Notes: generated by a model not told the origin, from the letters alone. Positions 3,497 through 7,987 are shown, numbered from the stretch's first letter. The stretch: 64,000 bases of DNA from a virus (IMGVR_UViG_3300020179_002092:1-64000), one strand, 5' to 3'. A program made the numbers and translations.

Positions 3497-3580
3497 AGGG
3501 ATGTGGTGGAATGGTATACACAACAGACTTAAAATCTGTCGCTGCAAAGTATGAGGGTTCGACTCCCTTCATCCCTACCA
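3497..3580 (+). tRNA. tRNA-Leu(TAA)
   Basis: Acceptor AGGGATG/CATCCCT, anticodon arm acaga-ctTAAaa-tctgt, long variable arm, GTTCGA, encoded CCA. Confidence 0.95.
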
Positions 3581-3589
3581 AGGAATAAT

Positions 3590-3772
3590 ATGGACAAAAA
3601 AGTAAACGATATATTAAAAGCACTACTAGGCACTGACGAGCTAGTTCAACGCTGGTGGAATAGCCCTAATCGTGCGTTCGATGGAGAAATACCTGACGAT
3701 TTGTGGAATACTAGTGACGGTCGTAAACAGGTTTATACATATATAGTAAATCAACTAGAAGCCCCATACTAG
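3590..3772 (+). CDS. stand-alone Xre/MbcA/ParS antitoxin C-terminal (DUF2384)-like protein
   Basis: WWNSPNRAFDGEIPDDLWNTSDGRKQV fits WxxxPNxxLxGxxPxxLxxTxxGxxxV; RBS AGGA immediately after tRNA-Leu CCA. Confidence 0.7.
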   Translation: MDKKVNDILKALLGTDELVQRWWNSPNRAFDGEIPDDLWNTSDGRKQVYTYIVNQLEAPY

Positions 3773-3849
3773 ATGCGTTAGCATAGCTGGCCAAATGTAC
3801 TGCCCTGTCACGGCAGAGATCATGGGTTCAAATCCCATACGCATCGCCA
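3772..3849 (+). tRNA. tRNA-Asp(GTC)
   Basis: Acceptor GATGCGT/ACGCATC, ctgcc-ctGTCac-ggcag, discriminator G, CCA. Confidence 0.95.
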
Positions 3850-3925
3850 TATTAAAATATTCTTTATAAGAGTATTTTAATATGGCTACTTGTTAGTAGC
3901 CATGCTAGAACAGTACGAGAATAAT

Positions 3926-4396
3926 ATGAAACCTTTTGACATTAAGGAAGTAAAAAATTATATTCTGCAAACTAGTCAGGAGAGTAGGATCTACTTAGGC
4001 GCAGATAGCGAGCGAAGTCAGCACGAGAAGATTTGGTGGGCTGACTATACTGTGGCTATCGTAGTACACATAGACGGCAAACACGGTTGTAAAATATTTG
4101 GTTATCATGTTCGTGAACGTGACTATGATCAAAAGAAGAATAGGCCTAGTATTAGATTGATGACTGAAGTCTATAAAGTTAGCGAAATTTACTTAGAACT
4201 AAAAGATGTAATTGAGGATCGTCATGTCGAAATACACCTAGACCTTAATCCACAGGAGTGCTATGCTAGTAATCAAGTAGTGCAACAAGCTATAGGCTAT
4301 ATTCGAGGTACTTGCGATGTTGAAGCTTTAATTAAACCAGATGCTTTTGCTGCAAGCTATGCAGCTGACAGATTAAAATTTATATTAAATCAATGA
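3926..4396 (+). CDS. YkuK-family RNase H-like protein (DUF458)
   Basis: IYLGADS, RLMTEV, EIHLDLN, KPDAFAASYAADR motifs. Confidence 0.8.
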   Translation: MKPFDIKEVKNYILQTSQESRIYLGADSERSQHEKIWWADYTVAIVVHIDGKHGCKIFGYHVRERDYDQKKNRPSIRLMTEVYKVSEIYLELKDVIEDRHVEIHLDLNPQECYASNQVVQQAIGYIRGTCDVEALIKPDAFAASYAADRLKFILNQ

Positions 4397-4611
4397 AATA
4401 TACTAGATTTGACCTAGAGCAACTAATTCTCAAAAACTGGGAAATTACTACCGAAATTAAATACTTAAACGAATTAATCTTAGAGGGTAAACCAAGCCAA
4501 GATCAGATTACAAATTATTTGCTGGGCTTAGAAACTATTTATGAAGTAAAGTTTAATAAGTTATGGGATTGTTTTGAAGAACTTTGTCAAAATCAAAAGA
4601 TTGCACTTTAA
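4393..4611 (+). CDS. phage hypothetical protein
   Basis: ATGA overlap with upstream gene. Confidence 0.75.
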   Translation: MKYTRFDLEQLILKNWEITTEIKYLNELILEGKPSQDQITNYLLGLETIYEVKFNKLWDCFEELCQNQKIAL

Positions 4612-4612
4612 A

Positions 4613-4686
4613 GCCCTTTTAGTTAAATGGTATAACAGTTGATTTGTAATCATCAATTGGCAGTTCAATTCTGTCAAAGGGCACCA
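4613..4686 (+). tRNA. tRNA-Thr(TGT)
   Basis: Acceptor GCCCTTT/AAAGGGC, anticodon loop ttTGTaa, CCA. Confidence 0.9.
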
Positions 4687-4689
4687 AGT

Positions 4690-5366: not shown

Positions 5367-5442
5367 GCGGGTGTAACTCAGCTGGTAGAGTGCAACCTTG
5401 CCAAGGTTGATGTCGTGGGTTCAAGTCCCATTACCCGCTCCA
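5367..5442 (+). tRNA. tRNA-Gly(GCC)
   Basis: GCGGGTG/TACCCGC, caacc-ttGCCaa-ggttg, TCCA end. Confidence 0.95.
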
Positions 5443-5443
5443 T

Positions 5444-5519
5444 GCGGCAATAGCTCAAATGGTAGAGTACCTGCCTTCCAAGCAGGATGTTGTCGGTTCG
5501 AAGCCGATTTGCCGCTCCA
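5444..5519 (+). tRNA. tRNA-Gly(TCC)
   Basis: GCGGCAA/TTGCCGC, cctgc-ctTCCaa-gcagg, TCCA end. Confidence 0.95.
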
Positions 5520-5537
5520 TATAAAAAATATTTCAGT

Positions 5538-5612
5538 ACTCAATTAGCTCAGCGGTAGAGCATAGCCTTTACACGGCTAGGGTCAGCAGTTCGAATCTGT
5601 TATTGAGTACCA
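5538..5612 (+). tRNA. tRNA-Val(TAC)
   Basis: ACTCAAT/ATTGAGT, tagcc-ttTACac-ggcta, CCA. Confidence 0.93.
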
Positions 5613-5630
5613 ATTCTAGGTATCATAAAT

Positions 5631-6434
5631 ATGCAGTCTATACCAGTAATAGGTGTACCCATAGTTAATGGTGTTCATTGGTTAGAAAGATTAATTAATA
5701 GTATAGATTATCCAGTAGATAATTTGTTTATAGTTAATAATAGTGCTAATGAAAAAACTACTGCTCAACTAGAGCAGTTAGTACAAACTAAAAAAGAATT
5801 TATTAAAAAAATAAGTTTAACAAATTTTCCTGGTAATATTGGTTGTGCTGGAGCCTGGAACTTAATAATTAAATGTTACTTGATGGCTCCATATTGGATA
5901 ATAACGAATCATGATATAGCATTTACCGCTGGTTGGTTAAAGACTATGGTTGAAAAAGCTAGTGATCCGGAAACTGGTATAGTATTTAGTAAAGCAGAAC
6001 ACTATGTATCCCCCGGAAATGGCGGCATAATTACTCTAGGTTGTTGGGATGTATTTCTAATAAAAGACTGGGCAGTACATAAATTTGGTTTATTTGATGA
6101 AAATTTATATCCTGCATATTCAGAAGATATAGATTACTTAATAAGAACAATTATTGATCCGATAAAAAAGAGTTCTGTTGAATTACCATACTATCATGGT
6201 GAAACAATGGACTATGCCCAAAGTGGTGGTCAAACTTTTCGTGTTGATCCAAAATTAAAAGAAAAAATAGATTATGCTAGACTTTTAAATGAACATGCTT
6301 ATATGAATAAGAAGTGGGGACCTGGTTGGCATTGGTTAGATATTTATAAGCATCCATTTAATAAGCCAGATATTGAATTAAAAATGAGTTTTTTTGATAT
6401 ATTTTTTGCAAGAAGTAAATATTTAGGGTTTTAA
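5631..6434 (+). CDS. glycosyltransferase family 2-like
   Basis: IVNN, NIGCAGAWN, ITNHDI (DxD-like), GLFDENLYPAYSEDIDY. Confidence 0.8.
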   Translation: MQSIPVIGVPIVNGVHWLERLINSIDYPVDNLFIVNNSANEKTTAQLEQLVQTKKEFIKKISLTNFPGNIGCAGAWNLIIKCYLMAPYWIITNHDIAFTAGWLKTMVEKASDPETGIVFSKAEHYVSPGNGGIITLGCWDVFLIKDWAVHKFGLFDENLYPAYSEDIDYLIRTIIDPIKKSSVELPYYHGETMDYAQSGGQTFRVDPKLKEKIDYARLLNEHAYMNKKWGPGWHWLDIYKHPFNKPDIELKMSFFDIFFARSKYLGF

Positions 6435-6436
6435 TT

Positions 6437-7909
6437 ATGCAAATTATTGACTTTTTTCCTTACTTTGACGGCACAGGAAAAGAATTATTAGAATTAAGAA
6501 TTAATATTTTAAAAGATTATGTAGATAAATTTATAATTTGCGAATCTAATAAAACCCACAGTGGTATATCTATTGAATATAAACTAGAAGAACGAATTAA
6601 AGAACTTAATTTACCAGGTAAAAAAATTCAAGTAATTAGGATTGATATTCCAGAAGAAGATAAACTTCCAGTAGAATTAATAGATATTTTTAATTGTTAT
6701 GAAGATAATAAAAATAAAATATCTATTCGTGCTAGAACAAGAGAACGCATGCAAAAAGATTCACTATTATCTATACTGGATAATTACAGTGATAATACAT
6801 TATTTTTAGTTAGTGACAGTGATGAAATAATTGATCCTAAACATCTACAATGGTTAGGTGCTACAGTATTAGCACATCAAGATGTTATTATTAAAGTACC
6901 TCTTGTACACCTAGAAGGTTGCGCAAATCTTAGAGTCTACAAAACCGCAGGCCATCCTAAATTGTGGGATGGTGCCTTATTTATGGCAACAAAAATTCAA
7001 CTAAAAAAAGCAACTCCTACACAAATTAGATCTAATATTAATAATCCTTTTCCAATTAGATATTTACATCACGACTCTAAACGTGTAGAAGATTTAGGTT
7101 GGCATTTTAGTTGGATGGGCAAAAAATATCATAGAAATTTAAAACGTAAAAATTTTACACACTACAATGATAAATTTCAAAACATACTAGGCAATAGTTA
7201 TAGTAGTTCTTCTATTGAAGATTTTCACGATCAAGAACCAGTTGAGGGTATGATTTCGCCTAGTGGTGAATTAGACACAGTACTAAAACTATATCCAGAA
7301 TCTTTATTACCACAACAGATATTTCTATTGCCAGCCGTAAAAGAATATTTATTACCAAAGTCACCTGTTATTACTGATCTAATAGATCTAGAATATGTTA
7401 GTGCTTGTAATAAATCTACTGATATCAATGAACATTTGCCTATATTAAAAGAATTAGCTGATCAGTGTAATTCTGTTACTGAATTTGGAACCAGAGATGG
7501 CCAGAGTACAAGAGCATTTTTAGCTAGTAAAATAAATACTATAAAAGCCTATCATCTTAGTTTAGATACTAGTGTACAAAAGTTATTTGATTATGCTAGA
7601 GATCGGAATAGAGATGTGTCATATACTCAAGCAGATGTATTAAATTTAGAAATTAATAATACTGATTTACTATTTATAGATACTTGGCACACTTATGATC
7701 AACTTAAGCAAGAGTTAAATATCCACGGCAATAAAGCCAATAAATATTTAGTTTTTCATGATACTCATACTTATGGTACTAAAGGCGAAGATAGAGATAA
7801 ATTAGGATTGCTACCAGCAATTCTAGAATTTTTATCAAAAAATCATCACTGGAAAATAAAATTACATAAAACCAATAATAATGGTCTTACAGTCTTAGAA
7901 AGAATTTAG
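6437..7909 (+). CDS. GT17-like N-acetylglucosaminyltransferase fused to class I SAM methyltransferase (Methyltransf_24-like)
   Basis: N: IDFFPYF..ELLELRI..VDKFIICESNKTHSG, SDSDEI, GWHFSWMG; C: EFGTRDGQST, LFIDTWHTYDQL, FHDT, NNNGLTVL. Confidence 0.8.
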   Translation: MQIIDFFPYFDGTGKELLELRINILKDYVDKFIICESNKTHSGISIEYKLEERIKELNLPGKKIQVIRIDIPEEDKLPVELIDIFNCYEDNKNKISIRARTRERMQKDSLLSILDNYSDNTLFLVSDSDEIIDPKHLQWLGATVLAHQDVIIKVPLVHLEGCANLRVYKTAGHPKLWDGALFMATKIQLKKATPTQIRSNINNPFPIRYLHHDSKRVEDLGWHFSWMGKKYHRNLKRKNFTHYNDKFQNILGNSYSSSSIEDFHDQEPVEGMISPSGELDTVLKLYPESLLPQQIFLLPAVKEYLLPKSPVITDLIDLEYVSACNKSTDINEHLPILKELADQCNSVTEFGTRDGQSTRAFLASKINTIKAYHLSLDTSVQKLFDYARDRNRDVSYTQADVLNLEINNTDLLFIDTWHTYDQLKQELNIHGNKANKYLVFHDTHTYGTKGEDRDKLGLLPAILEFLSKNHHWKIKLHKTNNNGLTVLERI

Positions 7910-7987
7910 CCCCCTTAGCTCATGCTTGGTTAGAGCACCCGACTCATAATCGGTAGGTGCCGTGTTCGACTCACGGAGGGGGCACCA
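7909..7987 (+). tRNA. tRNA with CAT anticodon, probably Ile2 (lysidine) rather than Met
   Basis: GCCCCCT/AGGGGGC, GACTCATAATCG arm resembling ileX-type tRNAs, CCA. Confidence 0.85.

Follow-up and report, generated by a model that had tools for sequence, protein, structure and literature searches.

Stop codons that share a base with tRNA genes in a freshwater T5-like phage: probable spacer loss rather than a switch built around a phage tmRNA

INTRODUCTION

Can the maturation of a transfer RNA (tRNA) take away the stop codon of the gene in front of it, and does a phage make use of this? The question is raised by IMGVR_UViG_3300020179_002092:1-64000, a 64,000-nucleotide stretch of viral DNA (here called the window), in whose tRNA island (positions 3497 to 7987) two open reading frames (ORFs) end in a TAG codon whose G is also the first nucleotide (+1) of the following tRNA. 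A first-pass annotation, made from the sequence alone, had proposed that RNase P thereby creates messages without a stop codon, and that their products are tagged and degraded by way of a phage transfer-messenger RNA (tmRNA) encoded between the two junctions; genome compaction was named as the alternative. We compared the junctions with those of related loci and of cultured phages. It is our judgment that the shared-G stops are probably the result of ordinary spacer loss in co-transcripts of messenger RNA (mRNA) and tRNA, and not a switch built around the phage tmRNA.

RESULTS

Two stop codons donate the first base of a tRNA

ARAGORN and Infernal/Rfam agreed that tRNA-Asp(GTC) starts at 3772 and that a CAT-anticodon tRNA starts at 7909 (64.4 and 54.1 bits, respectively; cut-off, 29); the two genes, each with an encoded CCA, occupy 3772..3849 and 7909..7987 on the plus strand. 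The ORF at 3590..3772 (+; 60 amino acids [aa]) stops at the TAG at 3770-3772, and the ORF at 6437..7909 (+; 490 aa) stops at the TAG at 7907-7909. When the tRNAs were folded with their flanks, the first paired base of the acceptor stem (GATGCGT/ACGCATC in tRNA-Asp and GCCCCCT/AGGGGGC in the CAT tRNA) was in both cases the G of the stop codon, paired with position 72. Thus, the sharing of G by stop codon and acceptor stem, as described in the first-pass annotation, was confirmed at both sites by tRNA prediction, ORF coordinates, and folding. Its remark that the AGGA of the shorter ORF abuts the CCA of tRNA-Leu was also correct: the CCA ends at 3580, AGGA lies at 3581-3584, and the ATG is at 3590. 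In the frame of the longer ORF, a second TAG is found at 7916-7918, that is, at tRNA positions 8-10.

The shorter ORF matched the Pfam domain Xre_MbcA_ParS_C (PF09722; 2.6e-9, residues 9-52), which is only the C-terminal, toxin-binding domain, and it is called antitoxin-like below. The longer ORF matched Glyco_transf_17 (GT17; PF04724; 6.3e-7) over residues 16-139 only, and the "methyltransferase" in the name GT17-methyltransferase is a label of the first-pass annotation for its C-terminal half. Homologues of both ORFs were found as well. Both junctions belong to the class of overlaps between coding sequences (CDSs) and tRNAs defined by Hudson, Lau and Williams: a Pfam-matched CDS is followed, on its own strand, by a valid tRNA gene that contains part or all of the stop codon of the CDS.

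No terminator-like element was found between either ORF and its tRNA, and terminator-like hairpins lie 3' of both tRNAs. Provided that each tRNA is matured from a transcript that it shares with its ORF, an RNase P cut between -1 and +1 must leave an upstream RNA ending in UA, and this would hold for two tRNA-flanked messages in the window, namely, tRNA-Leu/antitoxin-like ORF/tRNA-Asp and tRNA-Val/GT2/GT17-methyltransferase/CAT tRNA. The geometric part of the RNase P proposal stands, whereas its regulatory part is not supported, in view of the drift of the junctions and of the phages without a detected tmRNA, both described below.

The junctions drift among relatives

We collected approximately 50 related loci (designated by L and a number) by protein-guided scans of viral and metagenome contigs, and expressed each junction as an offset, i.e., the position of the last base of the upstream stop codon relative to tRNA +1, where 0 is the shared G. 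Between the GT17-methyltransferase and the CAT tRNA, the offset was 0 in the window and in L135 (80% identity), -2 in L136 (74% identity), where TAA and one further base precede the G, and +9 in L002 (73% identity), where TTG replaces TAG and the frame stops at the TAG at tRNA positions 8-10. In a group with 62 to 67% identity (L137, L139, L140, L142, and L143), the order of GT2 and GT17-methyltransferase is swapped, and the GT2 gene in such relatives adjoins the CAT tRNA with an offset of 0 in five distinct contigs. Whichever glycosyltransferase gene is last adjoins the CAT tRNA, which is followed by a conserved terminator. Other genes in front of the CAT tRNA gave offsets of +9 (an ORF of 193 to 195 aa), -1 (a 49-aa rubredoxin-like ORF), and -14.

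Only two of five contigs have a tRNA behind the antitoxin-like ORF: the offset of the ORF to tRNA-Asp is 0 in the window and -1 in L012, where a complete TAA stands before the G, the window having one base fewer between TA and the tRNA. In L002, L028, and L031, the gene has no tRNA behind it and stops at TAA. The arrangement that removes the stop is thus not conserved among orthologues of either gene, as L136 and the latter three contigs illustrate. Spacers are absent throughout the island, and the particular spacerless state of each gene is not conserved. The proposal that tRNA processing and the phage tmRNA are coupled to antitoxin and glycosyltransferase levels accordingly found no comparative support, either in these orthologues or in the overlap counts given below.

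Overlaps are equally frequent in T5-like phages without a detected tmRNA

The window spans the first 64 kb of a virus contig from IMG/VR that is 74.5 kb long and has a completeness rating of 66%. Its DNA polymerase is 48 to 49% identical over 98 to 99% of the length to those of Demerecviridae (T5-like phages), and matches of the helicase, an SbcC-like nuclease, and ribonucleotide reductase also point to a T5-like replication module. A blastn search of the window against a phage collection matched tRNAs solely and returned no close cultured relative. From these sequence comparisons, we regard the phage as an uncultured freshwater (lake) phage distantly related to T5.

The tRNA regions of six cultured members of the Demerecviridae served as controls (T5, KKP_3711, Akh-2, PL1, VF16, and Thalassa; 153 tRNAs in all). 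No tmRNA was detected in these six phages by ARAGORN on the tRNA regions or by the Rfam tmRNA models, both of which were applied to four records, with only the permuted model applied to T5 and only the standard model to Thalassa. In Vibrio phage Thalassa, a 42-kb region around the polymerase is free of tRNAs, and the tRNA region lies elsewhere. Control junctions were counted with ORFs of at least 45 aa, and those of the window family were counted once per orthologue group, tRNA, and offset.

Among the 50 control junctions, 15 overlap, 4 are at -1, and 6 are at -2. T5 itself shows offsets of -1, +13, +22, and +23, and CDSs overlapping the 5' ends of tRNAs are already annotated in the T5 record. 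The window family has 10 overlaps in 28 junctions, a frequency not distinguishable from the 15 in 50 of the controls (Fisher's exact test, p = 0.62). The exact sharing of the G of TAG occurs in two control cases (Proteus phage PL1 and Vibrio phage Thalassa) and, somewhat more often, in 4 of 28 family junctions; with p = 0.18 and lineages that are not independent, we attach no weight to this difference. An enrichment of this arrangement in tmRNA-bearing T5-like phages, which the first-pass annotation had offered as a check, is thus not supported; overlap in the relatives occurs at the level that compaction gives, an outcome which the first-pass annotation had itself named as refuting its proposal. 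Besides, TA precedes G+1 in 10 of 70 tRNAs in the family and in 5 of 105 in the controls, with a TA dinucleotide frequency of 0.11. In the window, two of six tRNAs with G+1 are preceded by TA (probability of at least two, 0.135). The overlaps are therefore no more frequent than composition and zero spacing predict.

Compaction is also evident in the other genes of the window: all 13 neighboring same-strand pairs of large ORFs are separated by gaps of at most 12 bases, and 5 of the pairs overlap. Together with the junction drift and the similar overlap counts, these gaps favor genome compaction, the alternative that had been named at the outset.

Two small ORFs keep their stops inside tRNAs

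A third overlap, not flagged previously, was found in the window. The conserved small ORF at 5254..5376 (+; 40 aa from the given ATG) has no stop of its own and ends at the TAA at 5374-5376; the start of tRNA-Gly(GCC) is at 5367, and the TAA covers positions 8-10 of this tRNA. It lies between the tmRNA and tRNA-Gly and carries the conserved motif ..LRWYLDK..FIKV.LI.VR. A stop (TAA or TAG) at tRNA-Gly positions 8-10 terminates this small ORF in 14 of 15 distinct contigs that carry the tRNA; the offset to the first tRNA-Gly was +9 in these 14, including the window, and +20 in one. In L002, which is without that tRNA, the ORF has its own stop.

In addition, a hydrophobic 46-aa ORF precedes tRNA-Thr in L005, L006, L010, L012, L013, L017, L027, L030, L032, and L033 (e.g., L013:805-945), and in nine distinct relatives it runs 21 bases into the tRNA (offset +20). 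It ends in ..AELAQW, followed by a stop supplied by tRNA-Thr. The window lacks this ORF and has in its place a 72-aa ORF (4393..4611, +) whose TAA ends 1 base before tRNA-Thr.

The substitution pattern of both small ORFs is of the coding type: pairwise differences at codon positions 3, 1, and 2, in that order, were 1132/800/498 and 260/199/101, most at position 3 and least at position 2. On a common transcript, an RNase P cut at a +9 or +20 junction leaves an RNA several codons short. The ORF at 5254-5376, rather than the two genes flagged by the first-pass annotation, is the best lead for testing programmed stop loss.

The island encodes a two-piece tmRNA

As had been claimed, a phage tmRNA is encoded between the two shared-G junctions. 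It lies at 4693..4989 (+) and is of the permuted, two-piece form (RF04321; 110.5 bits against a cut-off of 47; model positions 1-213), with the acceptor piece and its CCA upstream and the coding piece after it, specifying the tag ANDEHFYQEFKLAA, which has a hydrophobic C-terminal end and is followed by TAA. ARAGORN missed the tmRNA in the window and calls tmRNAs in relatives. Most relatives encode the tag ANDEVFALAA, and the window, L030, and L032 encode longer tags (ANDEHFYQEFKLAA and variants).

Unlike the two-piece phage form, the tmRNA of freshwater Burkholderiaceae genome bins is a standard one-piece molecule with the tag ANEERFALAA. The comparison of the two forms covered window 4693-4989, L133:258-635, and L134:487-864. 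A search of the 74.5-kb contig (66% complete) for SmpB found no such gene, and the phage tmRNA presumably relies on host SmpB.

Candidate transcription signals

Promoters and terminators were assigned by consensus matches, and transcript ends are predicted; all lie on the plus strand. A look through sequencing runs for window 3400-8100 listed none of RNA. A sigma-70-like promoter (TTGACT-17-TATAAT, 3221..3249; 11 of 12 consensus positions) follows a terminator-like hairpin at 3183-3209 and is the likely start of the first mRNA-tRNA unit. This unit would run from approximately 3221 through a 71-aa ORF, tRNA-Leu, the antitoxin-like ORF, and tRNA-Asp to a 19-bp AT-rich hairpin at 3846..3886, which begins at the discriminator and CCA of tRNA-Asp (fold z = -5.6 for 3745-3890) and has no clear T run. 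The hairpin is predicted to sequester the CCA end of tRNA-Asp in the precursor, and may be either the end of the unit or a processing or stability element. Another unit would continue through GT2, the GT17-methyltransferase, and the CAT tRNA to an intrinsic terminator-like hairpin with a T run (7990..8011), conserved 3' of the CAT tRNA in relatives. A sigma-70-like promoter match for the next unit (TTGAAC-17-TATAAT) is found at 8032..8060, and a similar site is visible in L002.

Other features of the island and the likely host

Seven plus-strand tRNAs were predicted by ARAGORN in 3497-7987, and six of them were confirmed by Infernal/Rfam. The exception is tRNA-Thr(TGT) (4613..4686), which is presumably the one overlapping match lost to clan competition with the tmRNA model. 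In addition to tRNA-Asp and the CAT tRNA, the six include tRNA-Leu(TAA) with an encoded CCA (3497..3580), tRNA-Gly(GCC) (5367..5442), tRNA-Gly(TCC) (5444..5519), and tRNA-Val(TAC) (5538..5612). The CAT tRNA has a normal G1-C72 pair, and of the three CAU tRNAs of T5, it is tRNA-Ile2 that gave the best alignment with it by eye; the CAT tRNA is probably an AUA-reading isoleucine tRNA, which would fit an AT-rich phage whose host is richer in GC.

Upstream of tRNA-Leu lies a conserved 71-aa ORF (3277..3492, +); its TAA ends 4 bases before the tRNA, and the offset is -4 or -5 in eight relatives. An RNaseH-like ORF (PF04308) occupies 3926..4396 (+), a conserved acidic 66-aa ORF adjoins the tmRNA (5073..5273, +), and the GT2 glycosyltransferase occupies 5631..6434 (+). 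The ORFs at 5254-5376, 5073-5273, 4393-4611, and 3277-3492 and the 46-aa ORF of the relatives had no Pfam or PHROG match above noise, ArfA included. ORFs reading through upstream tRNAs, as well as a 53-aa alternative-frame ORF at tRNA-Leu, were treated as spurious.

The content of the island in tRNAs and ORFs differs in nearly every relative. L002 is without a 915-base block from tRNA-Asp to tRNA-Thr (window 3772-4686; L002:3602-3621), the PF04308 gene included, and its tmRNA directly follows the antitoxin-like ORF. In a more distant phage, L037:475 (IMGVR_UViG_3300010885_036397), the G of the TAG that closes an RNaseH-like PF04308 homologue likewise serves as +1 of a tRNA-Gly.

For the 60-aa antitoxin-like protein, neither an N-terminal helix-turn-helix domain within the ORF nor a RES domain on the contig was found, and its neighbors are tRNAs, with no RES or ART toxin gene beside it. 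This orphan could be a phage antitoxin mimic directed against a host RES-type defense. The CCA/AGGA/ATG arrangement between tRNA-Leu and this gene is kept in four of five contigs examined.

A GC-rich gene for a Rieske/VanA-type oxygenase (1947-2906) encodes a protein 91 to 95% identical to the products of freshwater Burkholderiaceae genome-bin genes. Such identity points to a gene taken from the host very recently, and on this account the host is probably a Burkholderiaceae bacterium. Recoding of TAG was considered and rejected: TAG terminates 20 of 84 ORFs of at least 80 aa, and ARAGORN found no suppressor tRNA.

DISCUSSION

We favor spacer loss because orthologous junctions differ, phages free of a detected tmRNA overlap equally often, TA in front of G+1 occurs at the dinucleotide level, and the genes are compact. 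Under this reading, genes and tRNAs are probably made as a single transcript, and translation would take place on the unprocessed primary transcript, with UAG whole, within its short life. Once RNase P frees the tRNA, the upstream RNA, having neither a stop codon nor a protective 3' hairpin, would decay fast, and the rescue of ribosomes stranded on it would fall to host or phage tmRNA, as it does with other truncated mRNAs; any stop-less ends would be an incidental load on ribosome rescue. The overlap would then be a tolerated by-product of deletion-driven compaction, which may shorten the life of the message. Deletion pressure at a spacerless junction should lead to few stable end states, namely, TAA directly before G, the shared G, and read-on to tRNA positions 8-10, and these are the states observed; a TAG or TAA at tRNA positions 8-10 is nearly universal. 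In tRNA 3' maturation, RNase E normally cuts 1 to 3 bases after CCA (PMC2190699). Such a cut at tRNA-Leu would enter the AGGA of the antitoxin-like gene, which suggests that the unprocessed transcript alone would be translated well.

Several observations weigh against spacer loss. The two small ORFs hold their stops inside tRNAs across 9 and 14 relatives, and such persistence could reflect use, beyond tolerance. The CAT tRNA nearly always has a spacerless upstream gene, and the shared G arises there in two different genes, the GT17-methyltransferase and, in five contigs, GT2. The tmRNA is present in every relative whose locus covers that part of the island. Besides, we infer co-transcription, the site of RNase P cleavage, and the decay or rescue that would befall the upstream fragment.

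One rival, the model of the first-pass annotation, is that the shared-G stops were selected, RNase P making stop-less mRNAs whose products are tagged by the phage tmRNA and degraded, so that protein levels are tied to processing and rescue. The confirmed geometry agrees with such a switch, as do the presence in this island, and in that of the covering relatives, of a complete permuted tmRNA whose tag ends in LAA, and the fact that most CAT-tRNA junctions are stop-losing (offset 0 or +9). Nevertheless, we think it quite improbable, given that L136 keeps TAA and a spacer base for the same gene, that the antitoxin-like gene is without a tRNA in three of the five contigs, and that T5-like phages lacking a detected tmRNA overlap as often; moreover, the likely hosts own a one-piece tmRNA, and SmpB was not found on the incomplete contig. 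A more general limiter, in which stop loss keeps the cargo genes of T4- and T5-like tRNA islands low and brief in expression, tmRNA or not, would accommodate the coding-type small ORFs and the overlap of approximately one-third of ORF-to-tRNA junctions in seven T5-like lineages, a rate far from the bacterial 250 per 115,660 tRNA and tmRNA (t(m)RNA) genes (PMC4131195), and a mechanism of this kind has been put forward earlier, with T4 segB/tRNA-Arg and the T5 F-Tfl nucleases as its cases (PMC2330249). Deletion bias, along with the fact that a tRNA needs no ribosome-binding site before it, gives the same pattern, however, and stop-kept states (-1 and -2) occur for the same genes, so that we regard this limiter, too, as unlikely. 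Broader still, and in our estimate very unlikely, is a scheme in which the whole island is expressed by tRNA punctuation, with RNase P rendering about one-third of the messages stop-less, the two-piece tmRNA being kept to carry or exploit the rescue load, and the small ORF possibly acting as an arfA-like reporter of rescue capacity.

Two further explanations would spare the stop codon. Both overlapped stops would leave UA, from which host poly(A) polymerase might rebuild UAA and allow normal termination, as in mitochondria. In Escherichia coli, the secG fragment that RNase P releases is a substrate of poly(A) polymerase I (PAP I) and polynucleotide phosphorylase (PNPase), and nontemplated A residues were seen there (PMC2241853). 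The likely host is a member of the Burkholderiaceae, a group that probably has PAP I. Such completion is impossible where the stop lies inside the tRNA, as in L002 and the tRNA-Gly ORF, and bacterial poly(A) tails chiefly mark RNA for decay; we consider it extremely unlikely. Alternatively, the tRNAs may come mainly from short transcripts of their own, the long mRNAs keeping uncut structured 3' ends and rarely losing their stops. A weak promoter-like site (7850-7879; 9 of 12 matches) lies approximately 30 bases before the CAT tRNA, and a terminator hairpin slows RNase P at secG-leuU (PMC2241853). The site is, however, no better than chance matches (39 found versus 26 expected) and falls within conserved coding sequence, and in E. 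coli it takes RNase P no more than seconds to process such co-transcripts, which leaves this explanation only a slim chance.

Spacer loss, our preferred reading, can be set beside several known systems. In mitochondria, tRNA punctuation reportedly yields mRNAs with a terminal U or UA (Ojala, Montoya and Attardi, 1981); the tRNA-flanked mRNAs of the window would resemble these in being released by tRNA processing, whereas completion of UAA by polyadenylation is a mitochondrial feature. In the case of arfA, an RNase III cut at a conserved hairpin removes the stop, and with tmRNA active, the protein made from this message is tagged and then degraded. This is how the switch proposed in the first-pass annotation would work; the arfA arrangement is conserved, whereas the stop-losing state in the window is not conserved among orthologues, and the small island ORFs have no similarity to ArfA in Pfam. 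A bacterial parallel for the predicted co-transcription is secG-leuU, studied by Mohanty and Kushner, in which mRNA, tRNA, and intrinsic terminator form one transcript: one cut by RNase P is enough to free the tRNA, after which PNPase and poly(A) polymerase destroy the upstream mRNA with a half-life of less than 30 s (PMC2241853). Unlike the genes in the window, whose spacer is zero or negative, secG keeps its stop and a 14-base spacer.

That stop codons may be lost through tRNA trimming has been put forward in print before. Hudson, Lau and Williams (2014) asked how many mRNAs become nonstop by overlap with t(m)RNA genes, counted the upstream same-strand overlaps in bacteria cited above, and raised a smpB/ssrA feedback for Carsonella (PMC4131195). 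Such overlaps are rare in bacteria (approximately 0.2% of t(m)RNA genes) and make up approximately 30 to 36% of ORF-to-tRNA junctions in T5-like islands, although the overlap at the two flagged junctions is minimal, a single base. For T4 segB, Brok-Volchanskaya et al. (2008) put forward a cut that separates the last sense codon from the stop during tRNA-Arg maturation, and they suggested the same brake on expression for the nucleases of the T5 tRNA cluster, the F-Tfl homing endonucleases (PMC2330249). As in the window, a phage ORF within a tRNA cluster would there lose its stop to tRNA maturation, with co-transcription in those phages; the genes in the window are not homing endonucleases, and a phage tmRNA has no part in that proposal. 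Our literature search found no experimental case of a nonstop mRNA made by RNase P. As for the tmRNA, two-piece forms were reported in 53 of 402 tmRNA-bearing phage genomes, aquatic phages included (PMC9004378). The OM43 phage Melnitz similarly carries a permuted ssrA unlike the tmRNA of its host (PMC9004378), but it is a T4-like myophage, whereas the phage in the window is T5-like, and its tmRNA follows tRNA-Thr immediately within a tRNA array.

Were island genes routinely to lose their stop codons through tRNA maturation, this would provide a cheap posttranscriptional timer for phage genes, and phage-encoded tmRNAs would gain a concrete job, although the evidence here points the other way, the overlaps behaving as neutral outcomes of spacer loss. 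The high rate of overlap makes T5-like phages a convenient system for an experimental test.

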